From Candidatus Fermentithermobacillaceae bacterium (GTDB lineage: Bacteria; Bacillota; Sulfobacillia; Fermentithermobacillales; Fermentithermobacillaceae), in assembly GCA_012842685.1 (NCBI GenBank), contig DUSI01000010.1, positions 23,988 through 87,987 on the forward strand: 64,000 nt of DNA, given 5' to 3'. Both the position numbers and the translations under genes were made by a program. Shown here one piece after another: positions 4,041 through 59,510 of this stretch; the first letter of the stretch is position 1, and each line of letters opens with the position of its first letter. Under the pieces are notes generated by a model that did no database searches, was not told the DNA's origin, and was given only the letters and a program-made list of their open reading frames with translations.

Positions 4041-5318
4041 TTAGATCCTTATGGTCTGCTCCCTGCGGGGTCCCACAGAGACCCACTTGACTTTGACTCC
4101 CGTCTCCCGTTCTATCATCTCCACGTATTCCCGCGCCTCTTTCGGCAGGTCGCTCAGGCTCCTCGCCGACGATATGTCCGTCTTCCAGCCGGGCATGTGC
4201 TTGAGCACCGGCTTTGCCTTGCTGACGAGCGGGGTGGGCGGGAAATCCTTCGTGATGTGGCCGTCTATGTCGTAGGCTACGCAGACGGGGATGGTGTCGA
4301 GATATCCGAGGACATCCAGGTTCGTTATGGCCAGCGCTGTCGCCCCCTGGACCATGCAACCGTACCTCGTCGCAACCGCGTCGAACCACCCGACTCTCCT
4401 TGGACGCCCGGTCTTGGCGCCGTACTCTCCCGCGTCTCCGCCGCGCCTGCGGAGCTCTTCGCCCGCCTCGCCCGTGAGCTCGGTGACGAAAGGCCCTGCT
4501 CCGACGCAGCTGGAGTACGCTTTGGTCACGGCCAGGACCTCGGTGATGGCGTAAGGCGGTAGTCCCGCTCCCACGGCGGCGTATCCGGCGACCGTCGAAG
4601 ACGACGTGGAGTATGGGTAGATCCCGTGGTCCGGGTCGCGCAGAGAACCCAGCTGGCCTTCCAGGAGGATGGTCTTTCCTTCTTTGAGGGCTTCGGAGAA
4701 CAGCTTCGTCGTATCGGTCACGTAGGGTCTCACTATCTCGGCCTGGGCCGTGAGTTCATCCACCAGGTCGTCGACCTTAAGGGGCGGTTTGCGGTAGAGG
4801 TGCTCGAGGAGGACGTTCTTTATCTCCAGGGCGTGGGATACCCTGGCGCGGAGGACGTCTTTGTCGAACAGCTCCGCCACCTGGAGGCCGATCTTGGCGA
4901 ACTTATCAGAGTAGAACGGGGCGATGCCCGACTTGGTCGAGCCAAACTGGCGCGCGCCCAGCCGCTCTTCTTCGTACTCGTCCAGCTGCTTGTGGTAGGG
5001 CATGAGCACCTGGGCCCTGTCGGATATGGCTATTTTGGGAACGGGCACGTTCCTCTGGGTCAGGCTCTCGAGTTCTTCGGCGAACGCGCGGATGTCCAAG
5101 GCCACGCCGGGTCCGAGGACGTTCGTCACTCCGGGGTAGAACACGCCCGAAGGAAGAAGGTGGAGGGCAAACTTGCCGTAGTCGTTTATCACTGTGTGGC
5201 CCGCGTTGCTCCCGCCCTGGAACCGCACTACAAAGTGGGAATCCCGGGCGAGGAAGTCCACCATCTTGCCTTTGCCTTCATCTCCCCAGTTGGCTCCAAC
5301 TACCGCTATTACGGCCAT
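4041..5318 (-). CDS. purA: adenylosuccinate synthetase
   Basis: N-terminal P-loop VVGANWGDEGKGK; length ~425 aa; GGAGGAGG RBS 8 nt upstream of the ATG at 5318. Confidence 0.95.
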   Translation of the reverse strand: MAVIAVVGANWGDEGKGKMVDFLARDSHFVVRFQGGSNAGHTVINDYGKFALHLLPSGVFYPGVTNVLGPGVALDIRAFAEELESLTQRNVPVPKIAISDRAQVLMPYHKQLDEYEEERLGARQFGSTKSGIAPFYSDKFAKIGLQVAELFDKDVLRARVSHALEIKNVLLEHLYRKPPLKVDDLVDELTAQAEIVRPYVTDTTKLFSEALKEGKTILLEGQLGSLRDPDHGIYPYSTSSSTVAGYAAVGAGLPPYAITEVLAVTKAYSSCVGAGPFVTELTGEAGEELRRRGGDAGEYGAKTGRPRRVGWFDAVATRYGCMVQGATALAITNLDVLGYLDTIPVCVAYDIDGHITKDFPPTPLVSKAKPVLKHMPGWKTDISSARSLSDLPKEAREYVEMIERETGVKVKWVSVGPRREQTIRI

Positions 5319-17906: not shown

Positions 17907-18185
17907 GTGGTGACGATAACGGTTTGCGTGGGAAGCTCGTGTTTCCTCCGCGGTGCATCTCAGGTGATAGAAGGATTTCGTGCCCTGATCGAGCGAGAAG
18001 CGCCGGGAGTTGTCGAACTCAAGGGCAGCTTTTGCATGGAACGGTGCGGCAACGGGGTGACGGTGAAGATCGGAGATGTCATCCTGGCCGACGTCCATCC
18101 GGAAGATGTGGAGAACGTTTTTCGAGAGCACGTGCTGCCCGCCTTAGGAAGAAACGCGGAGTGTGGCCAACATGTCCATCATTGA
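17907..18185 (+). CDS. NuoE-like thioredoxin-fold [2Fe-2S] ferredoxin (HfsA-like)
   Basis: four Cys in the NuoE pattern (TITVCVGSSCF...GSFCMERCGNG); GTG start 6 nt after a G-run. Confidence 0.75.
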   Translation: MVTITVCVGSSCFLRGASQVIEGFRALIEREAPGVVELKGSFCMERCGNGVTVKIGDVILADVHPEDVENVFREHVLPALGRNAECGQHVHH

Positions 18186-19935
18186 GACGGTGCGGCGAAA
18201 GTGCAGGGACTGCTACAAGTGCCTGCGTGCGTGCCCGGTGAAAGCCATCAAGGTAGAGCGAGGCCCTCAGCCTTACGAAGTCCATGCCAGCGTGCATGAG
18301 GACTTCTGTGTAAACTGCGGCACGTGCATAAGGGAGTGCCCGCAGAAGGCGAAAAGGCCCCGGGTCGATACGGACAAAGTGAGGGAGATGCTGCGGAGGG
18401 GCGACCGCGTGGCCGCAAGCCTCGCTCCGTCTTTCGCCGCGCTCATCGACCGGCCCTTGCGTCTTGTCACCGCCCTCCGGAAAGCCGGCTTTTCCACGGT
18501 CCAGGAGACGGCCTTGGGTGCCGAGATGGTATCCAGGGCGCATATGAGGCTCCTGGAAGAATCGCAGGTGCCGTATATAGGGAGCGCGTGCCCCGCCGTG
18601 GTGAGCCTGATCGAGAGGCACTACCCTGAGGCCATAAGATTCCTCGCCCCTTTGGTCTCGCCGGCCATCGCCCACGGCAGGTACCTGAAACGCTCCATCC
18701 CTGGGGTCAAGGTGGTTTTCATAGGACCCTGCGTGGCCAAGAAAGAGGAGATAGACGATCCCGAGGTAAGGGGCGCGGTCGACGTAGCCCTCACCTTTGA
18801 CGAAACTCTGGCCTGGTTGAGAGAAGAGGGCATCAGACTCGAGGATTGCCGTGACGGCGAGCTGGACGGGCCCTTTCCCTCAAGGGCGCGACTCTTCCCC
18901 GCGGACGGGGGTCTCCTCCGGTCGACCGTGGACTGCGGCTTGCTCTCCAAGGCCTATCTTTCGGTGTCGGGAATGAGCGCGTCCATCGAGATGATCCGGC
19001 ATTTCCTGAGCAGCCAAGACGTGCCCCGCCTGGTGGAGCTCCTGGCGTGCCCGGGAGGGTGTATAGCGGGGCCTTCCGCAAGTCCCGAGAGAGACCTCTA
19101 TGAGAGGCGGAGGCTCCTCATCGAGTACGAGAGGTCGGCGCCCGAAAGCCCCGGCGCTGGTCCGGAGTTCTACGAAAGCCTCCTCTCGCCCGAGGAGCTG
19201 AGGAGGTCCTACAGAAACTTGAAGGTGCCTCTCGCGAAACCTTCCGAGAAGCAGATAAAGGAGATCCTCGAGCGTACGGGCAAGTACAGCCCACAGGACG
19301 AGCTGAACTGCGGATCGTGTGGGTATTCGTCGTGCAGGGAGAAGGCCATAGCGGTGTTCAACGGCATGGCCGACCCAGAGATGTGCATCCCGTACATGAG
19401 ACAGCGGGCGGAGTCCATGGCCAACGTAGTGGTGGGCGCCACTCCCGACGGTGTTATAGTCACCACCCCCGACGGGACGGTAGTCGACCTGAACGCGGCA
19501 GCCGAAAGGATGCTCGGTAAGAAAAAGAAAGAAGTCCTGGGCACGAGCATATCCGCACACATGGATGCCTCGCTCTTTGAGGAAAGCGCCCGGACGATGG
19601 CTACCTCACGGGGGGAGATGTCGCTGAACGGCCTCGTGATAGACGGCCAGGTGGTCTACGTGCCCGACCAGAAGCTCCTCGTGGGCCTTTTCATGGACAT
19701 AACCGAAGAGCGCAGGCAGACGGAAAAGAGGAAGCGGGTTGCCGAGGAGGCGATCGAACGGGCAAAGAAGGTCATCGAGGAGCAAATGGAAGTCGCCCAG
19801 AAGATCGCCGGCCTCCTTGGGGAGACCACGGCCGAGACCAAGATATCCCTCACCGCGCTTATGAACGTGATAAAGGAGGAAATGCCGTCAAGTGGCTCGT
19901 CTAAAGGCGGAAGTGGCGGTAGCCCAGCTCAATAA
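18172..19935 (+). CDS. sensory [FeFe]-hydrogenase-like protein with a C-terminal PAS domain (HfsB/HydS-like)
   Basis: N-terminal 2x[4Fe-4S] ferredoxin Cys motifs; H-cluster motifs GSACPAV (L1 variant), FIGPCVAKKEE (L2), ELLACPGGCIAG (L3); extra CGSCGYSSC...C cluster; PAS region GATPDGVIVTTPDGTVVDLNAAAERMLG. Confidence 0.85.
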   Translation: MSIIETVRRKCRDCYKCLRACPVKAIKVERGPQPYEVHASVHEDFCVNCGTCIRECPQKAKRPRVDTDKVREMLRRGDRVAASLAPSFAALIDRPLRLVTALRKAGFSTVQETALGAEMVSRAHMRLLEESQVPYIGSACPAVVSLIERHYPEAIRFLAPLVSPAIAHGRYLKRSIPGVKVVFIGPCVAKKEEIDDPEVRGAVDVALTFDETLAWLREEGIRLEDCRDGELDGPFPSRARLFPADGGLLRSTVDCGLLSKAYLSVSGMSASIEMIRHFLSSQDVPRLVELLACPGGCIAGPSASPERDLYERRRLLIEYERSAPESPGAGPEFYESLLSPEELRRSYRNLKVPLAKPSEKQIKEILERTGKYSPQDELNCGSCGYSSCREKAIAVFNGMADPEMCIPYMRQRAESMANVVVGATPDGVIVTTPDGTVVDLNAAAERMLGKKKKEVLGTSISAHMDASLFEESARTMATSRGEMSLNGLVIDGQVVYVPDQKLLVGLFMDITEERRQTEKRKRVAEEAIERAKKVIEEQMEVAQKIAGLLGETTAETKISLTALMNVIKEEMPSSGSSKGGSGGSPAQ

Positions 19936-21046
19936 GCACGGTGAAGAGCTCTGCGGCGACTGCGTGGAAGTGGTCGAAGGGTCGTCCACGCTGGTGGTCC
20001 TCTCTGACGGCCTGGGAAGCGGCGTCAAAGCCCACATACTGGCCTCCATGACCTGCAAGATGATAGCCACCATGCTGAGGGGCGGGCTTCATCTGGATGA
20101 AGTGGTTGACTCTCTCTCCAAGACTCTGCCCGTCTGCGAAGTCAGGCACCTCGCCTACAGCACCTTTTCCATCTTGCGCATCATGGCCGACGGATCGGCT
20201 TACCTGGCTGAATTCGACAACCCGGCGGTTTTCTGGGGTAGAGGCGACGAGCTCCTGTCCTTTGAGCGTGAAAGCCGGGATTACGCGGGGAAAATCGTCA
20301 AGGAAAGCCGGTTCACCGTCCAGGACGGCGACTGGCTGGTGATGATAAGCGACGGAGTCCTCCACGCAGGGATAGGCGGCGTCTGGAACCTTGGCTGGGG
20401 CTGGGACAGGATAGGCGACTACCTGCGGAGGGTATCCCCTTGGGAAGAAGACGCCAGGTCTCTGGCCAGCCAGCTGTTGGAAACCACGAGGAAGCTCTAC
20501 GCGGGGAAACCCGGCGACGACGCCACGGTGGTCGTGGTGAAGATACGGGTCCCGAGGAAGCTCACGGTGCTGGCAGGCCCGCCTGAGAAGAGGGCCGACG
20601 ATGCCCATGTGGTGCGGCTCCTCATGGAGAGCCCGGGAAAGAAGGTCGTCTGCGGCGGCACCACCAGCCTCATGGTCGGCAGGGAGCTGGGTAGGAGGGT
20701 GGAGGTGGAGCTGGGCTCCATAAGGGATTCGACGCCTCCCACAGGCCGTATCGAAGGCATTGACCTCGTAACCGAAGGGATACTTACCCTTACAAAGGCC
20801 GCGGATATACTCAGAGACGGGACCCCTCCAAGACACGTGCTTCGTTACAAGACCGATGGCCCCAGCAGGCTCGTGAGTCTCCTCGCGGAAGCCGACGAGA
20901 TAAGCTTCATAGTCGGCAGGGCGATAAACCCCGCCCACCAGAGCCCAGACCTTCCTTCCGAACTCGCCCTCAAGAGCAAGGTAGTAGAGGACCTTGCCCG
21001 GATCTTGCGCTCCCACGGAAAGCAAGTGACGGTTGCCACTTACTGA
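19892..21046 (+). CDS. PP2C/SpoIIE-type serine phosphatase (HfsC-like)
   Basis: VVLSDGLGSG and MISDGV metal-binding motifs; GTG start preceded by AGGAGGA; overlaps the hydrogenase end by 44 nt (translationally coupled). Confidence 0.85.
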   Translation: MARLKAEVAVAQLNKHGEELCGDCVEVVEGSSTLVVLSDGLGSGVKAHILASMTCKMIATMLRGGLHLDEVVDSLSKTLPVCEVRHLAYSTFSILRIMADGSAYLAEFDNPAVFWGRGDELLSFERESRDYAGKIVKESRFTVQDGDWLVMISDGVLHAGIGGVWNLGWGWDRIGDYLRRVSPWEEDARSLASQLLETTRKLYAGKPGDDATVVVVKIRVPRKLTVLAGPPEKRADDAHVVRLLMESPGKKVVCGGTTSLMVGRELGRRVEVELGSIRDSTPPTGRIEGIDLVTEGILTLTKAADILRDGTPPRHVLRYKTDGPSRLVSLLAEADEISFIVGRAINPAHQSPDLPSELALKSKVVEDLARILRSHGKQVTVATY

Positions 21047-45353: not shown

Positions 45354-47522
45354 CTATCCCGGGAACTTGACCAGAAAAAGTCTTCCCCTTGAATCCGCGA
45401 AGAGCACCTTTGTGCCCGCCGGCAGGCGCGCGATCAAGGGCGATACGAAGAGCGAAGCGTCGCTCACCTTGAAGTCGGTCTGGAATTCGTGGGTGAGGAA
45501 GGTTACGACACCCCTGTATCCGCCCGAGACATACTGGGGACCCGGTCCGGGTGAAGCTAAGAAAAGGGTGCTTCCCGCATCCATCCGCCAGAGGGGCGAG
45601 CCGTCTTCAGGTGAGAAGGCGTAGATGCTGCCGTTTGCTCCTCTCACCGTAAGCTCTCCCTCTCTTGAGATTGAGGGAGCGAGTAGGGTGGAGTGCCACC
45701 TCTGGCTCCACAGGGGTTCGCCCGAGATTAGGTCGTAGCACGCCAGGAGAGCGCCGCCCGAATGGGTGTCGTAGGCGGTTCCGGCAAAGACTTTCCCTCC
45801 GTGTACTTCGGGCGAAAGGAAAGGCGCGTAATATACCTGCCTGCCCATTTTGTGGGACCATACGACGCTTCCGGTTTCCAGGTCGACGCAGTAAAGGAAC
45901 CCGTCCCAGGCTCCAAACACCGCCCGTCCATCCGCGATCTTGGGGGCAGACACTATGGCTCCTCCGGCCTCAAGCTGCCAGTTTTTCCTGCCGGTTGTCG
46001 CGTTCAGGCTGTAGAGGACTCCCGATGAGGAACCGATTATGACGGACCGGTCTCCGGAGAGCGCCGCGATGGCCGGCAGGCCCGAGAAACCAGCCGTATC
46101 TACGCTCGCGCGCCAGATCCCGGTGCCGCGTGTAGCGTCGAGGCATATCACGTCTCCCTTGGCCGTGCCGAAATACAGCCGGTTTCCGTCCATTACCCCT
46201 CCGCCCCAGGGAGAACCGGCCGGGTACTCCCACAAGACCTCTCCGGTTTCAAGGTCCAAAAGCCTCACCTTGCCGTCTCTGGTCCCGAAGATGACCTGCC
46301 TTGTCCCACGAGGAAGGAACTCCCCGACAACAGCGCTCCCCAGGTCCATGCGCCACTCAAGAAGGTCGTAGGGGCTCTTTGCGAACTCTTTGTGCGCGTA
46401 GTAGGGGCCGTTTTCGGTTTCGGCCTTGATGCGCACCCTGTGGAATCCTTTGGCGTGGCCTGAGATGTCGAAAGTCAGCGTGTGGTCGCCTTTCTCAAGC
46501 AGGCCGAAGGACACGTACAGACCCCCGTCTATCTGGAGGCTTACCTCGGCCGGGGCGCCGAGGCTTAGCTTGCAGGTGAGGACTTCGTTTCCGGTTTCCG
46601 CCGACAGAGACAAGATGGGGCTCACCGCCGGGTCCTTCTTTGTGTTCCAGTTGCGCGAAGAGACCTCCAGGATCTTCTCCCGCTCGCGGCCTGCTTCAGA
46701 CACTTTCACCGAGTAGGCCGTGAGTGACTGTCCGTTCACCTCAACCACCGTGTACGCGCCGTCCATGAGTGCCCCGGTCATGAGGAAGTCCCGCCCCTGG
46801 CCTTTCCAGGTGATGAAAGAGTGGCCGTGGGCGCAGAAGACGACCCTCACCGGGTACTTTTCAATGAGGCTCGCGAACTCGTCGTCAGAGTCCTGGAACC
46901 TCGAGGGCTGGTAGAGAAGGGGGTGGTGGGCGAATATGGCCACCGGCTTCGTCTTGGGCTGGGCCCGGAGGTCAGCCTCGAGCCACCTCAGGGTCTCCGG
47001 CTCCAGCGTTCCTATGGTCTGTCCGGGATAGGTTGTGTCGAGGACGACGAAATGCCACTGGCCGTAGTCAAAGGAGTAGTTCCGCGGCCCCAAGGTGGAC
47101 GCGAAGATGGATCCCTGGGGGTCTTGCCACTTGGACTCATGGTTGCCCAGGGCGCCAAAGACGGGGAAGGGCAGGCCTTTCGTGAGTTGCTCGAAGATCT
47201 CGTACTCTTCCTCCGCTCCCGTTTCGGTGATATCGCCCGCGACTATGGCGAAGGCAACGCCTTTCTCGTTCAAAACCATGTCCTTGATGGCAAGATCGGT
47301 GTTCTTGTTGGCGGGACCGTACCCGAGGTGGCTGTCCGCCGCGAACACAAAAGAAAACCTGGAACGGCTCCCGCCTTGCAGGGTTCCCAGGGCCCTATAG
47401 GTGGAGAGCTCCACGGCAGCAGCCGCCGGTCTGGAAAGGAAGCCGAACGTTGTAACCAGGGTGAAAAGGATGAGCGCCGCAGCCCTCAGGCGCAGCTTTC
47501 GGTTCCAGCCGCAAGTAGGCAT
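45354..47522 (-). CDS. secreted calcineurin-like metallophosphoesterase fused to a PQQ/BamB-like beta-propeller repeat domain
   Basis: signal peptide; GDITETG and GNHES phosphoesterase motifs; C-terminal repeated G-x-V/L-x-A-x-D-x-x-T-G propeller blades. Confidence 0.8.
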   Translation of the reverse strand: MPTCGWNRKLRLRAAALILFTLVTTFGFLSRPAAAAVELSTYRALGTLQGGSRSRFSFVFAADSHLGYGPANKNTDLAIKDMVLNEKGVAFAIVAGDITETGAEEEYEIFEQLTKGLPFPVFGALGNHESKWQDPQGSIFASTLGPRNYSFDYGQWHFVVLDTTYPGQTIGTLEPETLRWLEADLRAQPKTKPVAIFAHHPLLYQPSRFQDSDDEFASLIEKYPVRVVFCAHGHSFITWKGQGRDFLMTGALMDGAYTVVEVNGQSLTAYSVKVSEAGREREKILEVSSRNWNTKKDPAVSPILSLSAETGNEVLTCKLSLGAPAEVSLQIDGGLYVSFGLLEKGDHTLTFDISGHAKGFHRVRIKAETENGPYYAHKEFAKSPYDLLEWRMDLGSAVVGEFLPRGTRQVIFGTRDGKVRLLDLETGEVLWEYPAGSPWGGGVMDGNRLYFGTAKGDVICLDATRGTGIWRASVDTAGFSGLPAIAALSGDRSVIIGSSSGVLYSLNATTGRKNWQLEAGGAIVSAPKIADGRAVFGAWDGFLYCVDLETGSVVWSHKMGRQVYYAPFLSPEVHGGKVFAGTAYDTHSGGALLACYDLISGEPLWSQRWHSTLLAPSISREGELTVRGANGSIYAFSPEDGSPLWRMDAGSTLFLASPGPGPQYVSGGYRGVVTFLTHEFQTDFKVSDASLFVSPLIARLPAGTKVLFADSRGRLFLVKFPG

Positions 47523-47653
47523 GTTCTGTCCTCCGTTGGCAATGTCTTCTACAAAGATCGACGGACGGCGGGGAAAAGGGTTCCGTTACAGGTTCATCTG
47601 GCCCGTGTCCTGCGGCATGGGCGGAGAGCGGTTACACGCACACGTGCGGCGGT

Positions 47654-48976
47654 TCAGCTTTCTTCCTTCCCGGCCAGCGAGGCTTCGAAGGCGGCCAGGC
47701 TCTCCCTCACCTTTGCAAGTTCCTCATGGGTCGCCTGCCTGCCGGAGTAGAAGCGGCTCGAGAAGATCGTGGTTATGCTTTCGATGTATGGCGCTGCGTC
47801 AGGCAATTTCTCTTCAAGGAAATGGGCGAACTCGATGGGAGTCTGGGACGGTGCCCGCACGTAACCCGCTGCGTAGGCCAGGGTTAAGAACCGTTCGTAC
47901 ATGGCGACCAGCGGGTCTTCGCTCCCTAGCCTGAGCCTCCGGGAGATCATGGACGCCAGGGGCCTTCCCAGCTCCTTCACCTTGTCCAGCGCCCACCGTG
48001 CTGCCTTTGAGGCAGTGAAGTCGCTGGAACGGACTTCGTCCGCGCCTTCGCCTCTGGCCCTTGAGGAGTACATCTCAAGGAGCTTCCAGATAGCCCAAAG
48101 AGCCAGGATTATGAGCATGAAAGCCAGCGCCCATCCCACTACCGGCCAGATCTCAGAGGGCGGCAGGTCTTCCTCCAGTTCGGGACGTTCAGGAGGGCCG
48201 ATCGGGTTCAGGGGGCTTTCGGTCTCTTGCCCCCTCTTTCCTATAGCGGCCAAGAGCGCGTCCATGAGCCAGCCCACGAGGATGCTCCAGGGTTTCACGA
48301 TGGCGAGGATTAGGGCCCGAAGCACCTCAAGGATGCCCCTAATCCCGTAGGATGCCACGGTAGAAGCTCCCGGGACGAGAACGAGGGCTAGCCATCCGGT
48401 GACGGAGAGGAGGATGGCCATCAGCGCCACCCGCCTCGCGGAGTAGCGGCCCGGAAGGTCCTCGTCGTTTCCCGTGAGGCAGAGCGCAATCCCCAAGCTC
48501 ATGAGGAGGGCCAGCGAGAGGAGGGAAGACGTGCCGGGGAAGGCCCGTATGCCTCCGGCTACCGAGGGTACGGCAGCCGCCACGAATGCCCACAAGACCT
48601 TCCTCTGCCACGCCGGCGGGCTTGTGTCTCTCTGCCAGATAAGGCACGCCACCGCGAGGGCGAGCACGAGAACCCCCCAGCCTTGCAGTGCTGGGGCGTA
48701 GAGGCCGAGGAAAGCGGGGAGGACGACCGAGCCAATGCACAGCCCTGTGAGAGCCACATAGGCCTTCCTCAAGGCGGGAGAAGCGGCGGAGCGGTCTGCC
48801 CATATTAGGAGCGGGAAGGGGAGGGCGAGGGATGCCGCGAGCAACACGCTCGGCCCATGGGTTCCCGCATACTGGCTTAGTCCCAGCCAATACGCCCAGA
48901 TGTAAGCCGGGACGCCCAGGAGCAGGGAAGAGCCGGCGACCTTAGACCAAGGGAGATAGCTCCAGGCTTTCCGCAC
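47654..48976 (-). CDS. DUF4129-domain multi-pass membrane protein (third gene of the MoxR/DUF58 triad)
   Basis: multiple TM helices then a cytoplasmic C-terminal domain; gene order MoxR-DUF58-this. Confidence 0.7.
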   Translation of the reverse strand: MRKAWSYLPWSKVAGSSLLLGVPAYIWAYWLGLSQYAGTHGPSVLLAASLALPFPLLIWADRSAASPALRKAYVALTGLCIGSVVLPAFLGLYAPALQGWGVLVLALAVACLIWQRDTSPPAWQRKVLWAFVAAAVPSVAGGIRAFPGTSSLLSLALLMSLGIALCLTGNDEDLPGRYSARRVALMAILLSVTGWLALVLVPGASTVASYGIRGILEVLRALILAIVKPWSILVGWLMDALLAAIGKRGQETESPLNPIGPPERPELEEDLPPSEIWPVVGWALAFMLIILALWAIWKLLEMYSSRARGEGADEVRSSDFTASKAARWALDKVKELGRPLASMISRRLRLGSEDPLVAMYERFLTLAYAAGYVRAPSQTPIEFAHFLEEKLPDAAPYIESITTIFSSRFYSGRQATHEELAKVRESLAAFEASLAGKEES

Positions 48977-50201
48977 GGGCCCACCCTCCTTTCAGTTTCC
49001 CACTCATGGCAGACACGCCGGGCATACCGCGCAGGACTTCGACGACCTCTTCGTCGCGCCTGGGGATCCGGTCGTCTGGTTCGACGATGATTACCCCAAC
49101 CCGGGGAGCGGCCTTCTTGAGGCTCTCCACGAGGGAAAGAGTTTCCTGGTCCATGAGGGCCGAGATGACCAGTGGGAACGAGCCTTCGGCCGTCACGAAA
49201 TGCCTCTGGGCGGCCATGAAGGTTGTCCCGAAGGCAAAGTGGCCGAGGCCTGCGAGCTGCGCAAGTATGTATGCCAGGTGCGAATCTCCTTGCCCCGGGG
49301 GACATTGAGCGAGGTGAGCTCCGCCGGGACCCTGGGTCATACCGTTGGATATGAGGCCTACCGCAAACTTCCTGGCGGCAAAATGGTGGGCACAGGATGC
49401 CGCTGCAACGACCAGGCTCTCCAGGACGTCCCGGTCGATCCCTTCCCAGGGAGCCCTGGACGTGGCTATGTCTAGGCAGATCACGACCCTGTTCCCGAAC
49501 GCGGCGTCAAACACCCTGGTTTGGAGTTTTCCGCTCCTGGCGGTGGATTTCCAGTCAACGTGTCGGCGGGAGTCGCCCGGCGCGTACTCGCGAACCATCT
49601 TGAGCATGCTCGGGTCCTGGTATGTCCACGAAGGGGCGGGAGACGTCCCGAAAGGATAGAAGGTCCCCTGAGGAGGGGCCTCCACGGGCAAGACTCTTGG
49701 TAACACGGTCACCCGGTCTTTAGAGTCCTCTGTGCGGTAGACGGGGTAGAGACCGAAGGGGTCTCCGGACCTCAGGGTCACAGGACCCAGGCTGTATATC
49801 CCCCGTTCCGAGCAGGAGAGGTTAAGCTTCCTCGTCACCGTCTCGAATGGCCCCACGAAAAACCGGTTCCGGAGGTTACCCTGGCCGGCATGCCAGTCTC
49901 TGGAGAGACCCGGACCTTGTGCCTCGAGCCCTTTGGGGAGAGTGTCGTCGCAGGTAAGAGCCACTGGAAGGGGCTTTGCGTTTTCCACGCTAAGCGTGAG
50001 CTCCAGCGCATCGCCGGCCATGACGGTACTTGAGGAAAACCTGCGTCTATACGAGACTTCACCGAGAGCGAGGGAAGATAGGGCCTTCGCAAGCAAGACC
50101 AAGCCCATGAGGAACGCTCCGAGCACCGTGACGGGCGGCCGTTTCAAGATAGCCCCCGCCACCAGCAGGGCCAGGGCGAGGTTCCGGAAGCTATTGCCCA
50201 T
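48942..50201 (-). CDS. DUF58-family protein (vWA-like)
   Basis: REYAPGDSRRHVDWKSTARSGKL hallmark; overlaps the MoxR stop. Confidence 0.8.
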   Translation of the reverse strand: MGNSFRNLALALLVAGAILKRPPVTVLGAFLMGLVLLAKALSSLALGEVSYRRRFSSSTVMAGDALELTLSVENAKPLPVALTCDDTLPKGLEAQGPGLSRDWHAGQGNLRNRFFVGPFETVTRKLNLSCSERGIYSLGPVTLRSGDPFGLYPVYRTEDSKDRVTVLPRVLPVEAPPQGTFYPFGTSPAPSWTYQDPSMLKMVREYAPGDSRRHVDWKSTARSGKLQTRVFDAAFGNRVVICLDIATSRAPWEGIDRDVLESLVVAAASCAHHFAARKFAVGLISNGMTQGPGGAHLAQCPPGQGDSHLAYILAQLAGLGHFAFGTTFMAAQRHFVTAEGSFPLVISALMDQETLSLVESLKKAAPRVGVIIVEPDDRIPRRDEEVVEVLRGMPGVSAMSGKLKGGWARAESLELSPLV

Positions 50202-51174
50202 CTTGTGAGCCCACCGACGGTCTGACGGGGACGGGCGTCTCTTCGAGCACCTGGGCTATGATCTCCCTCCTGGTTTTTCCCCGCAAAGATGCCTCGGATT
50301 TGGGGATCACCCTGTGGGCGAGGCAAGATACGGCCACGCTCTTAATGTCGTCCGGAAGGAGGTAGTCGCGTCCATCCAGGGCCGCTGCGGCCTTGGCGAG
50401 CCTCGTGAGATGCAGCGCTCCCCTGGGGCTAATCCCCAACACGAGGGCGGGATGGTTCCTCGTGGCCTCCGCGATGGACATGAGATATTCTCCCACTTCC
50501 CGGGACATTTTCACGAGCGTTGCCGCTTCCATCATTTCGTAGAGGTCCTCAGGGCTTATTGCCGGCTTCACTTCTGCTGCCGGGACGGGTGCCTCCGGCC
50601 CCGAGAACTTGTGGAGGATCTCCAGTTCCTGTTCCCTTGACGGATACCCCATGTTGATCTTGACCAGAAACCTGTCTACTTGGGCTTCAGGCAGCGGGAA
50701 AGTGCCTTCCATCTCGATGGGGTTCTGGGTGGCTATGACCATGAAAGGAGAGGGGAGAGGGCGCGTTTCGCCTTCGGTAGTAACCTGCCGCTCCTCCATG
50801 GCTTCAAGGAGGCTCGATTGAGTCCTGGGCGTCGCCCTGTTCAGCTCGTCGGCCAAGACTATGTTGGCGAAGACCGGACCCGGTACCCAGCGGAACTCGC
50901 CGTCTTTCTGGCTGAACACACTGAGCCCCGTCACGTCAGACGGGAGGAGATCCGGGGTGAACTGTATGCGTTTGAAAGTCAGTCCGGTAGATAGGGCAAA
51001 TGTCCTCGCCAGGAGAGTCTTTCCGACCCCAGGAACATCCTCAAGGAGGGCGTGGCCCTTTGCGGCGAGGCACCTGAGGAGCATCTTGGCCTGTTCCCTC
51101 TTTCCGACCACGACCTTCTCAATCTCGTCTAAGACCCGTTTCGCGTTCCCGGCGACTCTATCGAAATCCGCCAT
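50191..51174 (-). CDS. MoxR-family AAA+ ATPase
   Basis: Walker A GVPGVGKT; ~320 aa. Confidence 0.9.
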   Translation of the reverse strand: MADFDRVAGNAKRVLDEIEKVVVGKREQAKMLLRCLAAKGHALLEDVPGVGKTLLARTFALSTGLTFKRIQFTPDLLPSDVTGLSVFSQKDGEFRWVPGPVFANIVLADELNRATPRTQSSLLEAMEERQVTTEGETRPLPSPFMVIATQNPIEMEGTFPLPEAQVDRFLVKINMGYPSREQELEILHKFSGPEAPVPAAEVKPAISPEDLYEMMEAATLVKMSREVGEYLMSIAEATRNHPALVLGISPRGALHLTRLAKAAAALDGRDYLLPDDIKSVAVSCLAHRVIPKSEASLRGKTRREIIAQVLEETPVPVRPSVGSQDGQ

Positions 51175-52960: not shown

Positions 52961-54010
52961 CTATTCTCCGAGCTTTCCTCTCAGGGCGTAGACCACTATC
53001 GCAACGAGAAACACCGAGCCGGCCCAACCGACCGCAGGGTAGACGGTCCTCACCAGGTTGGTGAATCCCACTGAGCCGGCGAGGAGAGCCCCGCTTCCGG
53101 CGACGACCGTGACGAGCTTAAACCCCAGGGTATCCGGGGCGGCCAGCCTGGCCGAGAAACCGTAGAGGTTGGCTACCGCCGTGGTGTAGACTTCGGCGAG
53201 GAAAATGAGTGTGTAGATGCGGCCTCCTATGCGGTATACCTCTGAAGCCATTCCCGCCATCGGGATCTCGTAGCGGAGGACGTCCGGCAGGGAAGAGACA
53301 ACCGCCAGGAAGACGAGGAACAGCGCCGCTCCCAACCCGACCGCGCCCAGAGCCGCGCTGAGGGCCACTTCTCTTTTCGAGCGCAAAGTCGTCCCCAAAG
53401 ACGCGAGGACCGGTACCGACATGATCATGTTGTAGGAGATATAAGTGGCGCCCGCCAGGGGCCACGCAGGCACGAGGGGTCTTGTTCCGGCCGGCGGATC
53501 GCTTAGCGTCGCTCCCCTGGCAGAGATCACCGAAAGGCTCACGGCCAGCACACCGATTATGAGAAGGGGCACGACTGTGCTCACCGCAGCCACGACGCCC
53601 TTCAGGCCGAACAGGACGGTGACGACCGTGGCCACCACCATGAGGCCAGCTCCTATGAGCCAGGGGACGGATAACTCCTGGGCGAGGACCGAGCCGGCCC
53701 CCGCGACCATGGCCGATAGGGCCCCGAACAGGAAGAACGTGGTGATGATGTCCAGGAGGGGAGATAGGAACCTTCCCGAGATATCCCTGATCACGGGCAG
53801 GTGAGACGCGGCGTTCATCTTCCGGCCCACCTCCATCGTCGCGTACCCGAAGAAGGCGAAACCGGCCGCCGTTAGCGCGATGGCCAAGACACCCTTCTTG
53901 CCGAGAAGACCGAAAAACTGGAGGACTTCCTGTCCCGAAGCAAAGCCTGCCCCGACAACGGTGCCGATATAAGTGGCCGCAGACGCGAGTATTACCCTGG
54001 TCCTTTTCAT
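52961..54010 (-). CDS. YkvI-family membrane protein (amino-acid-permease-like)
   Basis: N-terminal IGTVVGAGFASGQEVLQFF hallmark; ~10 TM segments. Confidence 0.65.
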   Translation of the reverse strand: MKRTRVILASAATYIGTVVGAGFASGQEVLQFFGLLGKKGVLAIALTAAGFAFFGYATMEVGRKMNAASHLPVIRDISGRFLSPLLDIITTFFLFGALSAMVAGAGSVLAQELSVPWLIGAGLMVVATVVTVLFGLKGVVAAVSTVVPLLIIGVLAVSLSVISARGATLSDPPAGTRPLVPAWPLAGATYISYNMIMSVPVLASLGTTLRSKREVALSAALGAVGLGAALFLVFLAVVSSLPDVLRYEIPMAGMASEVYRIGGRIYTLIFLAEVYTTAVANLYGFSARLAAPDTLGFKLVTVVAGSGALLAGSVGFTNLVRTVYPAVGWAGSVFLVAIVVYALRGKLGE

Positions 54011-54825: not shown

Positions 54826-55698
54826 TCAGATACCCGGAAGCGGCATGTGCAATTCGCGTCGCTCGACGTTTTCTCTAAGGAAGGCTCCTCTTATTATATC
54901 AATATCTTCCGGCAGGTTCTCCAGGCCTTTGGCGATATATTCAGCAAAATATGCAGGTATGGGCACTTGGCTCAGGCGCACCGCGTATCTTATTTCGCTC
55001 TTCTTTATGGCCTGGAAAGCCTGGACCGCGCGTTTCAGGATCTGGCTCCGCCGCCTCGTGTAGTCCATGAAATATGAGACTATTGTCGATACCCTTCCGA
55101 GCCTCCGGGCTTCTTCCAGCTTCATGATGAACCTGTAGACGTTCTGGCATCTGGGATCCAGGCTTACTCCGAAGTCAAACCAGACCGGTATGCCTTGGAC
55201 CATGGCCATGTTGTCTTCGCCGTCGTCCCAGTTCCTCACGAGGATGTCGAAAACGGTCTGGAACCCTCTCGCTATCTCCGGGTCGTCGTGGGGGAGTTTA
55301 TCCGGCGTGTAGTCGTGGGCAGAGCGGGAGAAGTAGAACGTGGGCCCGACCAGCTTTCTGAGCTGCTCCTCTTCTCCGGGCTCAAGGTCCATGTCGGATG
55401 CCAGCCTCACCGCCACCATGTTGCAGCGCCCGAGCCCCAGGATGCTCACGAGCTTCTCCACGGGACCGTTTGAGAAAAACGTCTCGGGTATTCCCTTCCA
55501 CCGTTTGGAAGGGATGGCTTCCCTGAAAACCTGGACCGACGGGGCGAAGTTCTCTTTGACGAAGTAGGTCGCGCCCTTGACCACGTATTTGACGATCCCG
55601 TGTTCCGCGATGATGGTGCCCATGATCTCTTTTTTCCAGCTCTTTGGACGGTTTTCCTCCAAGGTATAATTGGAGCATGAGATGCTGGTATTGTCCAC
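54826..55698 (-). CDS. hypothetical protein (290 aa), no recognisable motif
   Basis: ORF co-oriented with and upstream of the PHP gene. Confidence 0.5.
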   Translation of the reverse strand: MDNTSISCSNYTLEENRPKSWKKEIMGTIIAEHGIVKYVVKGATYFVKENFAPSVQVFREAIPSKRWKGIPETFFSNGPVEKLVSILGLGRCNMVAVRLASDMDLEPGEEEQLRKLVGPTFYFSRSAHDYTPDKLPHDDPEIARGFQTVFDILVRNWDDGEDNMAMVQGIPVWFDFGVSLDPRCQNVYRFIMKLEEARRLGRVSTIVSYFMDYTRRRSQILKRAVQAFQAIKKSEIRYAVRLSQVPIPAYFAEYIAKGLENLPEDIDIIRGAFLRENVERRELHMPLPGI

Positions 55699-55896
55699 GA
55701 TACCGCCTCGATTTCCCCGAACTTAGCCGGAGACTCAAGAAGAGCGAATACGACCGTATGAGGCAGTCTGCGGGCATGGGAGACGTGTGAATAGCTGTTC
55801 GTTTTGATCGTCGCAGCACAATTGGCTTCGTTTTGTGCTATCATTCTAGAGGAGTTTTTCTCCGTTTGGAGCGGTGTGTTGGGAGGATGAGTTGTC

Positions 55897-56994
55897 ATGA
55901 AGAACATGGCTAGGCTGGGCATCACCCTGATGCTTATATGCGCCGCAGCCGGTCTTGGATTGGCGGTCGTATACGCCAAGACGAAACCCGTTATCGATCA
56001 GCGCGCTCAGGAAGAGCTCCTTGCGGCGGTGCGCGCCGCCATGCCCGACGCCGAAGAAATCGTCGAAGAGACCAAAGACGGCGAGACGTACTGGCTCGGC
56101 AAGAAGGCGGGCGAGATCGTAGGCGGAGCGATAAAGGTGTCTTCCGCCGGTTTCCGCGAGCCCATCGAGCTGATGGTGGGCTTTAACGCCGAAGGGAAAG
56201 TCTCAAGCGTAGCGATTATCTCGCTCAACGATACTCCGGGGATCGGTACCAGGGTCAACGACAAAGCGTGGCTCGATAAGTTCATCGGGGTAGAAAACCC
56301 CATGGCGGTTGACGCCATCACTGGGGCGACCGTGTCGTCCAGCGCCGTCAAGGGCGCCGTGAAGAAAGCCATGGATTTCATGGCAGCCATCGTGGCTCCG
56401 TCCGTGACCGACGGTCCCATCGACATCGCTCGCGTGCCGGACGGTACCTACACCGGAAAAGGCCTCGGCCTCAGGGAACTTGAGGTTTCCGTCACGGTTC
56501 AGGGCGGAAAGATCGTAGAGGTCAAAGTCACCCGCCACGAGGAATCTCCGGGAATCGCCGATCCGGCCATAACCGGCGTCCCCAAGAAAATGGTTGAACA
56601 GAACAAGGTCGACGTCGACGTAGTGAGCGGCGCCACCTTCACCAGCGAGGGTATCATCGAGGCCGTGAAGAACGCACTAAGGCCTCACGTCCAGACTTCC
56701 GGGAAGCCCGCGCTGGATATAAGCAAGATAGCCGACGGCACTTACACGGCGACCGGCCTTGGGCTTAAGGAACTGGAAGTTGCCGTAACCGTCCAGGACG
56801 GCAAGATCACCGAGGTCAAGGTCGTGCGTCACGACGAGACGCCCGGCATCTCCGACCCGGCGATCAGCAAGGTCCCCAAGGCCATAGTGGAGAAACAGAG
56901 CGTCAAGGTAGACGTTGTATCGGGCGCGACCTTTACCAGCGAAGGCATCATGGAGGCGGTGGAGAAGGCCCTTGCCGGAGCGCCGACCAAGTAG
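55897..56994 (+). CDS. extracytoplasmic protein with three FMN-binding (flavinylation) domains; PplA/RnfG/NqrC-like
   Basis: N-terminal signal/anchor; flavinylation motifs DAITGATVSS, VVSGATFTSEG (x2). Confidence 0.85.
   Translation: MKNMARLGITLMLICAAAGLGLAVVYAKTKPVIDQRAQEELLAAVRAAMPDAEEIVEETKDGETYWLGKKAGEIVGGAIKVSSAGFREPIELMVGFNAEGKVSSVAIISLNDTPGIGTRVNDKAWLDKFIGVENPMAVDAITGATVSSSAVKGAVKKAMDFMAAIVAPSVTDGPIDIARVPDGTYTGKGLGLRELEVSVTVQGGKIVEVKVTRHEESPGIADPAITGVPKKMVEQNKVDVDVVSGATFTSEGIIEAVKNALRPHVQTSGKPALDISKIADGTYTATGLGLKELEVAVTVQDGKITEVKVVRHDETPGISDPAISKVPKAIVEKQSVKVDVVSGATFTSEGIMEAVEKALAGAPTK
56413..56994 (+). repeat. in-frame tandem duplication (~294-nt units, 2 copies) encoding two FMN-binding domains
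   Basis: units ~70% identical at protein level (DGTYTGKGLGLRELEVSVTVQGGKIVEVKV... vs DGTYTATGLGLKELEVAVTVQDGKITEVKV...). Confidence 0.7.
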
Positions 56995-57721
56995 GATAAG
57001 GGTTCTCCTCTGCGACGACCACGCGGTCGTACGCGAGGGTACAAGGCGTCTCTTGGAAGAAGAGCCTGACATTGAAGTGGTGGGGGAAGCTTCCGACGGC
57101 CTCGAAGCCATAGAGAAGGCCAGGGAGCTTTCCCCTGATGTTGTTGCCATGGATATATCCATGCCCCGCATGAACGGCATAGAAGCCACCCGGCGGATAA
57201 AGAGCATGAACCCTTCGATCCAGGTGCTTGCCCTCACCGCATACGACGACTTCGCCTATGTGGCGGGGCTACTGGAAAGCGGCGCCTCGGGCTACATCCT
57301 GAAAAGCGCCCGGGGAGACCAGCTGGTTACGGCGATAAGGGCGACAGCCAGCGGAGATTCGGTGCTCGACCAGAACGTGGCGAGGGAAGTATTCTCCCGG
57401 CTTGCGAGAAGAGGGGCCGAAGAGGCGGCCCCGGCGGAGCCTGCCGGTGAGAGCGAGCGGGCGAAGCCGGCTCCTGGCAGAAAGGCGGATTGGGAAGCAC
57501 TGACCGCCAAGGAGACGGAGGTTTTGAAGCTTGCCGCCAAAGGCCTCTCCAACAAACAGATAGCCTCCGATATGGGTGTGAGCCCGAGAACCGTTCAAAC
57601 CCACCTGGCTTCGATCTTCTCAAAACTCGGCGTATCTTCCAGGACGGAAGCGGTTGTAATGGCGCTCAAGTCGGGGATCCTCTCGGAAGGCGACCTTGGA
57701 GGCCCGTCAGGTGGGTCGTAG
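56972..57721 (+). CDS. NarL/LuxR-family response regulator
   Basis: REC domain (VLLCDDHAVVREG...MDISMP) plus LuxR HTH (LTAKETEVLKLAAKGLSNKQIASDMGVSPRTVQTH); TTG start proposed after GGAGAAGG. Confidence 0.8.
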   Translation: MPERRPSRIRVLLCDDHAVVREGTRRLLEEEPDIEVVGEASDGLEAIEKARELSPDVVAMDISMPRMNGIEATRRIKSMNPSIQVLALTAYDDFAYVAGLLESGASGYILKSARGDQLVTAIRATASGDSVLDQNVAREVFSRLARRGAEEAAPAEPAGESERAKPAPGRKADWEALTAKETEVLKLAAKGLSNKQIASDMGVSPRTVQTHLASIFSKLGVSSRTEAVVMALKSGILSEGDLGGPSGGS

Positions 57722-59315
57722 GAAGCCGGGACTCGACAGGGGGACGCGACTCCTCCTTGAGATGGGGAGGATCACCCGGGACAACCAGGGGAGAGACGAT
57801 GCCCTGGCCAGGATCGCCGGGCTTGTCCTCAAGAGATTCAGGGTCGACGCGGTCTCCATCCTCGTATACGACCAGTCATCCCGTTCCGCGTATGTCTCCG
57901 CCTCGACAGGCGTGAGGGACGACAGGCTCATCATATCTCCGGACATCACCCTGAGGGTGACGGGAGATTCTCTCTTGGCAGCGGTGCTCCGCTCACCCGA
58001 TAGGCCGCTGCTCGTCAGGGAGCGCCGCGGGGACCCCGTCCTCGGCGAATGGCCCTTCGACGCCGTGATTGCCGTCCCCATGGTTTCTACGGAAGACGTA
58101 ACCGGCTTTATGCTCCTGGCGGGGAGCCAGAGGATCCTCTCGAGGCTCTCGCCCGACCTCCTGATGGCGGTGGCGGGACACGCGTCCATCATCGCCGACA
58201 GGGCCCACCTCACGGAGAGCCTCCGGCGGACCGACGAACAGTACAGGGTGTTTGCCGAAAACGCCCAGGATATGGTGTTTATCCTCGACGGAGGCGGGCG
58301 CTTCCTTTACGTGAACCCGGTCTCGAGGGAGATCTTGGGGTACGAGCCCGAGGAGATGATCGGCAGGTATTTCGGCGAGTTCGTGACCCCCGAATCCTGG
58401 GCCGCCACCACGGCGGAAGTCAAGAAGGCCGCGTCGAAGAGGCAGAAAACCGTCGAGTATACCTGGGTTATCCAGCGGAAGGACGGCGAGTACGCCACAT
58501 TGCACGTAAGGGCCTCGCTCATATACAGGGACTTTGACTTATACAGGCACCAGGGTATAGCGAGGGAGCCTTCCGTAGAGAACCGCCTCAAGGAGCAGCT
58601 GGCGAAGCAGGGGATGGAGCTCAGCCAGTCCAGGTCCCGCGTGGAGAGGATGCGCGAGTACCTGGCGGTTGCGAACCGGGCCCAGGAGGAAGAACGGGCC
58701 AGGATAGCCCGGGATATTCACGACGGGGCGGTGCAGTACCTGGTAGCCTTGAGGAGGCGTCTCGACCTGTTTGGGAGGGAGTACCTGAAGGGCTCGCCTT
58801 CTGAGTCGGGCAGAAAGGCCCTCGAGGACATGGACTCACTTCTCGATACCGCCATACAGGACCTCAGGGAATTCGCGCGCAACCTGCGCCCGCCTGTCTT
58901 GGACGACTTTGGCCTCGTGTCTGCCTGCGAGTGGCTCGCCGAGCAGACCGCCAAGGAAGGGATAAGCGTGGTCTTTGCGCCCTCGGGAGACATAAGGCGT
59001 CTCTCAGGTGAGGTTGAGGTGACCGCTTTCCGCATCGTCCAGGAGGCCCTGGCGAACGCGGTCAAGCATTCGCGGGCCACACAGGTGGAGGTCGGCCTCG
59101 AGTTCCTGGAAGACACCCTCCTCATCACCGTGCGCGACAACGGCCGGGGGTTTGAACTCCCCGAAGGCGTGGGTGCCTTCGGGAGGGCCGGCCAGATGGG
59201 CCTCGTGGGCATGTTTGAGCGGGCCGAGATGATGGGCGGCAGCATCGATCTCCAGTCCGCCCTGGGAAAGGGTACCGTCCTTACGGTAAGCATACCTCTC
59301 GTGGACCGGGCCTGA
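57696..59315 (+). CDS. cytoplasmic sensor histidine kinase (GAF + PAS + HisKA_3 + HATPase)
   Basis: RIARDIHDGAVQYLVAL H-box (HisKA_3); PAS (VFILDGGGRFLYVNPVSREILGYEPEEMIG); HATPase_c motifs at the C-terminus. Confidence 0.85.
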   Translation: MEARQVGRRKPGLDRGTRLLLEMGRITRDNQGRDDALARIAGLVLKRFRVDAVSILVYDQSSRSAYVSASTGVRDDRLIISPDITLRVTGDSLLAAVLRSPDRPLLVRERRGDPVLGEWPFDAVIAVPMVSTEDVTGFMLLAGSQRILSRLSPDLLMAVAGHASIIADRAHLTESLRRTDEQYRVFAENAQDMVFILDGGGRFLYVNPVSREILGYEPEEMIGRYFGEFVTPESWAATTAEVKKAASKRQKTVEYTWVIQRKDGEYATLHVRASLIYRDFDLYRHQGIAREPSVENRLKEQLAKQGMELSQSRSRVERMREYLAVANRAQEEERARIARDIHDGAVQYLVALRRRLDLFGREYLKGSPSESGRKALEDMDSLLDTAIQDLREFARNLRPPVLDDFGLVSACEWLAEQTAKEGISVVFAPSGDIRRLSGEVEVTAFRIVQEALANAVKHSRATQVEVGLEFLEDTLLITVRDNGRGFELPEGVGAFGRAGQMGLVGMFERAEMMGGSIDLQSALGKGTVLTVSIPLVDRA

Positions 59316-59510
59316 ACTCCCGCGGTAGCGTACCCCTTACTGTTCATCGTGCTCATCGCGCATCGTATGGTTCCTATCTTTGCTTCGTTCTATGTGCGCC
59401 TGTTTTGGCGTACGCAGAAATGCTTACCTCCGGCTCAGCCACTTTGCCGAGGTGGGGTTTTCCCTCCAGAAGTAGGATATCCGTGAAGAAACGGCGCGGA
59501 GGGATACGCG

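Follow-up and report, generated by a model that had tools for sequence, protein, structure and literature searches.

An RnfG-type protein with three predicted flavin domains, encoded ahead of a NarL-type two-component system and apart from rnf genes in a Fermentithermobacillaceae bacterium

Which partner could a membrane-anchored protein with three FMN-binding domains have, when its gene stands ahead of a two-component system and no transmembrane electron-transfer gene lies around it? The question is raised by a 64,000-nucleotide stretch of contig DUSI01000010.1 (assembly GCA_012842685.1, a Candidatus Fermentithermobacillaceae bacterium), called the window below, which encodes such a protein of 365 aa (the tri-FMN protein), followed by a NarL-type response regulator and a soluble histidine kinase. 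The organism belongs to a clade of fermentative Bacillota related to Ca. Fermentithermobacillus, class DTU015. We propose, with a probability of roughly 0.6, that the product is a triply flavinylated, membrane-anchored member of the RnfG family, whose first domain would dock most probably on the Rnf complex and whose flavin chain would extend outward. The general model contained in this proposal, an extracytoplasmic triply flavinylated electron-transfer protein, is very probable.

The original prediction had described a 365-aa protein in which a signal or anchor sequence is combined with three FMN_bind domains that each contain [S/T]GAT, and the open reading frame, the Pfam matches and the hydropathy profile all agreed with it. 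FMN_bind (PF04205) covered three stretches of the protein (176.4 bits, E 1.8e-52), and the single hydrophobic segment comprised residues 4-29. An AlphaFold2 (AF2) model built on 24 orthologues, with a mean pLDDT of 81.6, contains a long N-terminal helix, unbroken over residues 2-48, and then three compact domains of alpha/beta type. The linkers between these (residues 169-171 and 266-271) are modelled with low confidence, and the whole has a beads-on-a-string shape. Since Cys15 follows M-L-I and falls within the middle part of the helix, a lipobox is lacking; the N-terminus is an anchor and not a lipoprotein signal. With more than one FMN-binding domain placed after one N-terminal transmembrane helix, the protein is predicted to be extracytoplasmic and membrane-anchored. 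The helix was also its best-conserved region, with a mean column conservation of 0.76 compared with 0.65 for the core of domain 1, which is unusual for a mere passive anchor.

Each of the three domains carries the motif D-x-x-[S/T]-G-A-T, with TGAT at residue 142, SGAT at residues 244 and 342 and the Asp three residues before. Among 24 orthologues (41-89% identity) none departed from Gly and Ala in any of the three motifs, and the Thr was invariant or nearly so, being replaced by Ser in three sequences; in domain 3, G343, A344 and T345 did not vary at all. Conservation of the motif Thr relative to RnfG had been suggested as a check of the assignment, and it held: the domain 1 motif aligned with AITGAT of the Clostridium tetanomorphum RnfG (7zc6_G), and that of domain 2 with SGAT of CbFMN4 domain 1 (CbFMN4-D1). 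Domain 2 matched the crystal structure of the latter (8p2b) both in sequence (E 3.8e-10) and in fold (Foldseek TM 0.87, target-normalised). In this structure FMN is reported to be covalently bound to a threonine, and in both SaFMN3 and CbFMN4 it is attached to the motif Thr after co-expression with ApbE (PMC10339131). From the sequence we infer that Thr145, Thr247 and Thr345 are flavinylated.

It was domain 1 that placed the protein in a family. The rnfG model of NCBIfam (TIGR01947) scored 131.5 bits against a cut-off of 102, with residues 8-163 covering profile positions 1-186 of 187. The best PDB sequence match of the tri-FMN protein was RnfG 7zc6_G, and the five top Foldseek matches were RnfG chains of three solved Rnf complexes, 9eri_G and 7zc6_G being the best; the next matches were CbFMN4-D1 and SaFMN3-D2, both to the short domains, and after them NqrC. 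When domain 1 alone was used as a database query, only members of the present family and, after them, canonical RnfGs (170-192 aa, 31-40% identical) were retrieved. Domain 1 was 30-36% identical to RnfGs encoded in rnf operons (L040, L085 and P0035); in the L040 protein, from an rnfCDGEAB operon, the identity was 36% and the segment VYAKTKPVIE was the same. Judged by these alignments, domain 1 is a full-length RnfG-type module. The solved RnfGs of C. tetanomorphum (7zc6_G), A. woodii (9eri_G) and A. vinelandii (8rb9_G) thus share domain 1 from end to end, together with the anchor helix and the Thr motif. The tri-FMN protein differs from them in being only 24-30% identical, in about 200 extra C-terminal residues that make up two FMN domains, and in a gene unlinked from rnfCDEAB.

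Domains 2 and 3 have the same fold of about 85 residues as SaFMN3 and CbFMN4 (8p2a and 8p2b; TM 0.81-0.87, target-normalised; 29-38% identity), and the beads-on-a-string arrangement is common to these two proteins and the AF2 model. Multi-flavinylated proteins of this shape have been described (PMC11334425). SaFMN3 and CbFMN4 were produced in soluble form, as repeats of near-identical domains, and no RnfG-type domain is mentioned in the accessible part of their description (PMC10339131), whereas the tri-FMN protein is anchored and heterogeneous.

Further evidence for a connection with Rnf came from multi-domain relatives. A protein search recovered homologues with two, three, four or five domains, and the five-domain ones (P0035, P0009 and P0038) were 36-40% identical over the whole query. 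The genes of all three of those looked up lie exactly between rnfD and rnfE, in the order rex, fumarase, rnfC, rnfD, the five-domain gene, rnfE, rnfA, rnfB and a ten-gene mrp-type module. An apbE gene closes the cluster in two of the three, and the third contig ends with a gene without a family on record. More multi-domain RnfGs were found within rnf clusters at L017, L036 and L085. The tri-FMN protein resembles the multi-flavinylated RnfGs already reported from RNF clusters (PMC8238504) in its N-terminal helix, its RnfG-type first domain and its tandem short FMN_bind domains, each with [S/T]GAT. Unlike the five-domain proteins it has two extra domains and not four, and its gene lies outside an rnf operon, as the first gene before a NarL-type regulator and kinase. 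Measured by domain 1, the five-domain proteins (30-34% identity) are not nearer to it than single-domain RnfGs are (31-36%).

The tri-FMN protein therefore belongs to the described multi-flavinylated RnfG/FMN_bind class and is unusual only in its genomic context. Multi-flavinylated proteins and multi-flavinylated RnfGs have already been published (PMC8238504, PMC11334425, PMC10339131), and the searchable text of the same three papers contains no mention of a two-component link. They form a recognised class whose function is uncharacterised, and they have been proposed as the flavin counterpart of Gram-positive multi-haem cytochromes. What is new here is the combination, within one clade, of an unlinked RnfG-type tri-flavin protein, a coupled NarL-type system and a variable number of domains. 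As it stands, the protein is an ordinary addition to a known class in an uncommon genomic context.

The mechanism that we propose would proceed as follows. An ApbE encoded elsewhere in the genome would attach FMN covalently to the three motif threonines. Domain 1 would use its conserved helix and RnfG fold to dock on a redox partner in the membrane, for which Rnf (RnfD/RnfE) is the most probable candidate. Domains 2 and 3 would serve as a short flavin relay that lengthens the electron path beyond the membrane surface into the space of the cell wall, with an extracytoplasmic acceptor or donor at its far end. The NarL-type regulator and the soluble kinase would probably set the expression of the flavoprotein in response to a cytoplasmic signal. 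We infer the docking to Rnf, the direction and purpose of electron flow and the regulation by the two-component system. Rnf is favoured as the partner because domain 1 is an RnfG homologue, because multi-domain relatives fill the RnfG slot and because a relative within the clade, Ca. Fermentithermobacillus carboniphilus Bu02, was reported with rnfCDEAB, no G being named (PMC10215811). The docking of domain 1 to Rnf, taken by itself, has a chance somewhat short of even.

Several observations weigh against this proposal. The 64-kb window contains no gene for transmembrane electron transfer, whether rnf, nqr or another, and no apbE, and the same is true of the DNA within 10 kb of the gene at 10 orthologous loci; the linkage to rnfCDGEAB genes that marks an RnfG was absent from the same window and loci. 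The original prediction had stated that the window holds no ApbE, and neither Pfam annotation of the called genes nor tblastn found one there. In-operon five-domain genes carry the PGAP label 'FMN-binding protein', and the wording 'rnfCDEAB' for Bu02 could hide an in-operon G gene annotated in just this way, which is a weak point of the argument. The five-domain rnf clusters gave tetranucleotide correlations with the window of 0.54, 0.45 and -0.22, compared with 0.97 between two pieces of the window itself, so that these clusters come from other organisms. One orthologous locus, L013, retains the flavoprotein gene with its divergent neighbour and has none of the genes that follow elsewhere in the clade (regulator, kinase, sigma factor, VanW). 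Adjacency to the two-component system alone is also no proof of a functional tie, because the whole block of genes, including unrelated ones, is syntenic. A five-domain rnf cluster in metagenome 3300022212 was considered as part of the same organism and rejected (correlation 0.54, GC 0.565 against 0.602). The RnfD of L040, used as a protein query, retrieved only Elusimicrobia-like and other unrelated lineages and no member of the clade.

A bolder version would make the tri-FMN protein the only G subunit of Rnf in the clade, one that left the rnf operon, gained zero to two extra flavin domains and came under a two-component system of its own that senses the cytoplasm, with Rnf switchable between a closed ferredoxin:NAD+ oxidoreductase and a form with an extracytoplasmic electron outlet or inlet. 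We consider this unlikely. If true, an essential Rnf subunit could be regulated apart from the rest of the complex, and Rnf would be directly tied to extracytoplasmic redox chemistry.

Two other explanations are less likely still and differ little in this respect. The first is that the tri-FMN protein is a stand-alone RnfG-like paralogue with a non-Rnf partner, either a two-subunit complex of the Nqr/Rnf-like kind or a DsbD-like protein, the rnf operon keeping its own G. Orphan homologues in unrelated housekeeping contexts (L052, L077) speak for it, as does L015, where a homologue of two domains is encoded close to an mrp cluster and a DsbD_TM gene, and two-subunit Nqr/Rnf-like complexes with an RnfG/NqrC-like subunit have been described (PMC11334425). 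The described gene pairs of such complexes are clustered, however, and no such partner adjoins the gene studied here; moreover, domain 1 is closest to canonical RnfGs.

The second is the one that the original prediction had favoured, a PplA-like terminal flavoprotein of flavin-based extracellular electron transfer (EET), in which electrons would pass from the quinone pool through Ndh2/EetA/EetB-type components to the protein and on to extracellular acceptors or free flavins, without Rnf. Like PplA of Listeria monocytogenes (NF041941), the tri-FMN protein is extracytoplasmic, has more than one FMN_bind domain with its flavinylation motif and would depend on an ApbE-type transferase, and its short domains resemble those of the secreted multi-FMN proteins 8p2b and 8p2a. 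In a Symbiobacterium relative (L011), a five-domain homologue lies beside an FmnA-like PF07456 gene and a gene for a fumarate-reductase-like flavoprotein. The PplA identity was nevertheless rejected. The PplA family model gave 35.4 bits against a cut-off of 325; an anchor helix without a lipobox takes the place of the lipoprotein signal; the RnfG-type domain 1 is absent from PplA; and neither the window nor the stretches within 10 kb of the gene at those orthologous loci that were inspected contain ndh2, eetA/B, dmk or fmnA/B. A quinone-fed route is unlikely in view of the description of Bu02 as lacking both aerobic and anaerobic respiration (PMC10215811). The RnfG-family protein with Rnf as its most probable partner thus remains the preferred explanation, and the coordinates of the features on which it draws are given in Table 1.

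Table 1. Features of the flavoprotein and two-component genes, with positions in the window
Feature	Position	Strand	Evidence
tri-FMN_bind protein gene	55897..56994	+	365-aa open reading frame; Pfam FMN_bind x3; TIGR01947 rnfG above cut-off; AF2 model
Candidate extended -10 promoter element TGcTATCAT	55836..55844	+	about 55 nt ahead of the start codon of the flavoprotein gene
N-terminal transmembrane helix, residues 4-29	55906..55983	+	Kyte-Doolittle maximum 2.43; helix in AF2 model
Domain 1, RnfG-type FMN-binding, residues 1-166	55897..56394	+	end-to-end alignment with RnfG 7zc6_G including AITGAT
Predicted flavinylated Thr145 (domain 1), motif D139-A-I-T-G-A-T145	codon 56329-56331	+	
Domain 2, short FMN_bind, repeat unit 1, residues 173-270	56413..56706	+	direct repeat; 8p2b match
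Predicted flavinylated Thr247 (domain 2), motif DVVSGAT247	codon 56635-56637	+	
Domain 3, short FMN_bind, repeat unit 2, residues 271-365	56707..56991	+	direct repeat, 294-nt spacing
Predicted flavinylated Thr345 (domain 3), motif DVVSGAT345	codon 56929-56931	+	
NarL/LuxR-type response regulator, 249 aa	56972..57721	+	Response_reg 101.5 bits, GerE 77 bits; TTG start
Soluble histidine kinase, 534 aa	57711..59315	+	PAS, HisKA_3 55.6 bits, HATPase_c 57.9 bits; GTG start

The two genes downstream of the flavoprotein gene make up a NarL-family two-component system, the regulator combining a receiver domain with a GerE/LuxR helix-turn-helix (HTH) and the kinase combining HisKA_3 with HATPase_c. The suggested TTG start of the regulator gene, within the 3' end of the flavoprotein gene, was confirmed: the codon at 56972, which gives an overlap of 23 nt, was chosen by the gene callers, the homologous start codon is ATG in L010 and L012, and there is no other start before the receiver domain. 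The TTG at 56915, which would give the longest reading frame, was not supported. The kinase gene starts with GTG at 57711 and overlaps the regulator gene by 11 nt. Both overlaps recur in several species-level lineages (L007, L009, L010, L012), while L014 has a short gap instead, and the order flavoprotein, regulator, kinase was seen in at least seven lineages, with kinase identity down to 38%. The overlapping reading frames indicate that the three genes are translationally coupled and argue for their co-expression.

Upstream of the flavoprotein gene, the alignment of seven orthologous loci contained only five invariant columns besides the region of the start codon, namely G55837, T55839, T55841, A55843 and T55844. 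All of them fall into the candidate extended -10 element, which suggests a promoter role for it. We also looked for conserved repeats that could bind the regulator in these seven upstream regions, where the extended -10 element alone was conserved. A weak terminator-like hairpin lies 3' of the kinase gene, at 59439-59455.

The kinase had been predicted to be a cytoplasmic GAF-PAS HisKA_3 protein. It is soluble, without any hydrophobic segment, and its PAS, HisKA_3 and HATPase_c domains gave strong matches; the GAF assignment was weak and stayed below the gathering score. In the N-terminal region, residues 34-166 matched GAF with 17.9 bits (cut-off 22.4) and GAF_2 with 17.1 bits (cut-off 28.6), at E-values of 0.0045-0.0064, and one orthologue of the kinase had a weak GAF_3 match. 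Oxygen sensor kinases of the NreB type bind an Fe-S cluster through four Cys residues in their PAS domain. In the present kinase the only Cys is residue 406, which does not belong to the PAS domain, and the protein so does not conform to this type.

The regulator is also longer than usual: its 249 aa compare with about 205-217 positions in NarL-type profiles, and its orthologues have 230-259 aa. An insertion of about 35 residues rich in Ala, Pro and Glu separates the receiver from the HTH (residues about 145-195, 57400-57560).

When metagenomes were scanned with the kinase alignment, only one of 80 loci (L092, with the same synteny) held a true orthologue with an FMN_bind neighbour; at the other 79, occupied by generic HisKA_3 kinases, no FMN_bind gene was adjacent. 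A link between kinase and flavoprotein beyond the clade was therefore rejected, the link being clade-specific. First cistrons of HisKA_3/NarL operons are often signalling accessories, such as LiaF and NreA. On this analogy the flavoprotein could be the extracytoplasmic input of a three-component redox sensor, its redox state modulating the adjacent kinase, and in favour of this are the translational coupling in several lineages, the regulator-then-kinase order in at least seven and the silence of the flavinylation papers, in their searchable text, on any two-component link; it is highly unlikely all the same, because the kinase has no transmembrane segment and about three residues of the flavoprotein are cytoplasmic, which leaves no evident physical route for a signal, because L013 keeps the flavoprotein without the two-component system, and because the kinase scan and the synteny of the whole multi-gene block make the adjacency non-specific. 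We retain the reading of an RnfG-family flavoprotein whose expression the two-component system would probably control.

The block in question comprises eight genes. A 10-TM (transmembrane) membrane protein, a PHP hydrolase and an unknown protein of 262-290 aa are encoded on one strand, and the FMN protein, the response regulator, the kinase, an ECF sigma factor and VanW on the other. It was present in L007, L009, L010, L012, L014, L092 and L172, with flavoprotein orthologues at 45-89% identity; L010 is the complete genome of Bu02, which thus carries a syntenic orthologue.

The original prediction further regarded domains 2 and 3 as a recent in-frame tandem duplication with units of about 294 nt. 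The in-frame tandem duplication stood, and its recent date did not. A seed-extension tool found a direct repeat (56440-56678 and 56734-56972) with a period of 294 nt and 71% nucleotide identity, which Tandem Repeats Finder did not report at its score threshold. Between the two repeat units, 61 of 88 core residues were identical (69%), and an origin of domains 2 and 3 through internal in-frame tandem duplication is supported by these alignments. Identity by codon position was 0.80, 0.84 and 0.36 for positions 1, 2 and 3, respectively, and the same codon was used at 26 of the 61 identical residues, compared with 25.1 expected from local codon usage under full synonymous randomisation. By these values the duplication is old and its synonymous sites are fully randomised. 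The pair of domains is also common to orthologues at 67-89% identity. In a tree of single domains (neighbour joining on about 87 residues, indicative only), the domain 2 sequences of P0001, P0002 and P0003 clustered together and their domain 3 sequences elsewhere; this grouping by position indicates that the duplication is older than the split of orthologues at 77-89% identity.

Over longer evolutionary times the number of domains has not been stable. Two-domain proteins (P0006, P0008, P0011) nest inside the three-domain clade of the single-domain tree, and further subclades each have a domain 2/domain 3 pair of their own. When distant orthologues were compared, the two short domains of a single protein almost always showed higher identity to each other (0.64-0.72) than did domains occupying the same position in different proteins (0.52-0.59). 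This pattern, which is indicative only, fits either repeated duplication and deletion or gene conversion between the units.

Syntenic orthologues differ in the number of flavin domains, domain 1 being constant. Some have three, those of L012 and L014 have two, and that of L172 has one together with a separate 95-aa FMN_bind reading frame. In-frame stop codons occur right after domain 1: a TAG in the linker of L172 (10511-10513) and, in two samples, a TGA in place of the invariant Gly of PDGTY (L173 about 4833-4835, L174 about 2373-2375). The downstream domains stay in frame past the stop in all of them, and the stops could be truncation alleles, read-through sites or assembly errors. Domain 1 appears to be the functional core, because the helix is best conserved, because the number of domains varies and because two independent stops spare domain 1. 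The orthologous series, in which one syntenic gene has one, two or three flavin domains and five-domain relatives occur in rnf clusters, could serve as a natural experiment on the effect of extra flavins.

Among the more distant relatives, the five-domain rnf clusters, which occur in other Bacillota, form superclusters (L175 7753-21680, L177 7489-21424, L178 7739-21692) with a five-FMN_bind protein of 555-563 aa in the RnfG slot and an mrp/mbh-type antiporter module of ten genes. With a penta-flavin G subunit so tightly linked to Rnf, Mrp and ApbE, these superclusters may deserve a study of their own. Distant RnfG-like multi-FMN proteins also adjoin mrp-type antiporter subunits at L011 548-8294, in the Symbiobacterium metagenome-assembled genome, where the fumarate-reductase-like neighbour has an FAD_binding_2 domain, and at L015 7188-18618, the locus with the DsbD_TM gene.

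Two of the conserved neighbours of the flavoprotein gene have no recognisable family. The gene at 54826-55698 on the reverse strand, divergent from that of the flavoprotein, encodes a cytoplasmic protein of 290 aa that is kept in most orthologous loci, including L013, and had no match in Pfam, NCBIfam or the PDB. The other (52961-54010, reverse strand) encodes a protein of 349 aa that has about 10 hydrophobic segments, a single His and no Cys, is syntenic throughout the clade and gave no family match; lacking residues able to bind a cofactor, it is unlikely to be a redox partner.

Other genes of the window were noted in passing. A conserved string upstream (45354-51174, reverse strand) encodes a MoxR-type AAA ATPase, DUF58 and DUF4129 proteins and a 722-aa protein with a Metallophos domain and a PQQ-like beta-propeller. 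Downstream, from 62884 to the end of the window and on into L001 (16988-21098), a stretch conserved across the clade encodes a protein of 466 aa that weakly matches impB/mucB (IMS), a DUF6504 protein of 79 aa and a second polymerase of the DnaE type (1047 aa), and it resembles a mutagenesis cassette of the ImuB/DnaE2 type. Finally, the region 18163-21046 of the forward strand contains the gene for a 590-aa protein with ferredoxin-type 4Fe-4S motifs, an [FeFe]-hydrogenase large-subunit domain, an extra FeS domain and a C-terminal PAS domain, the 3' end of which is overlapped by a gene for a SpoIIE/PP2C-type phosphatase (19892-21046). The 590-aa protein looks like a sensory hydrogenase, and together with the phosphatase it looks like a hydrogen- or redox-sensing signalling pair.

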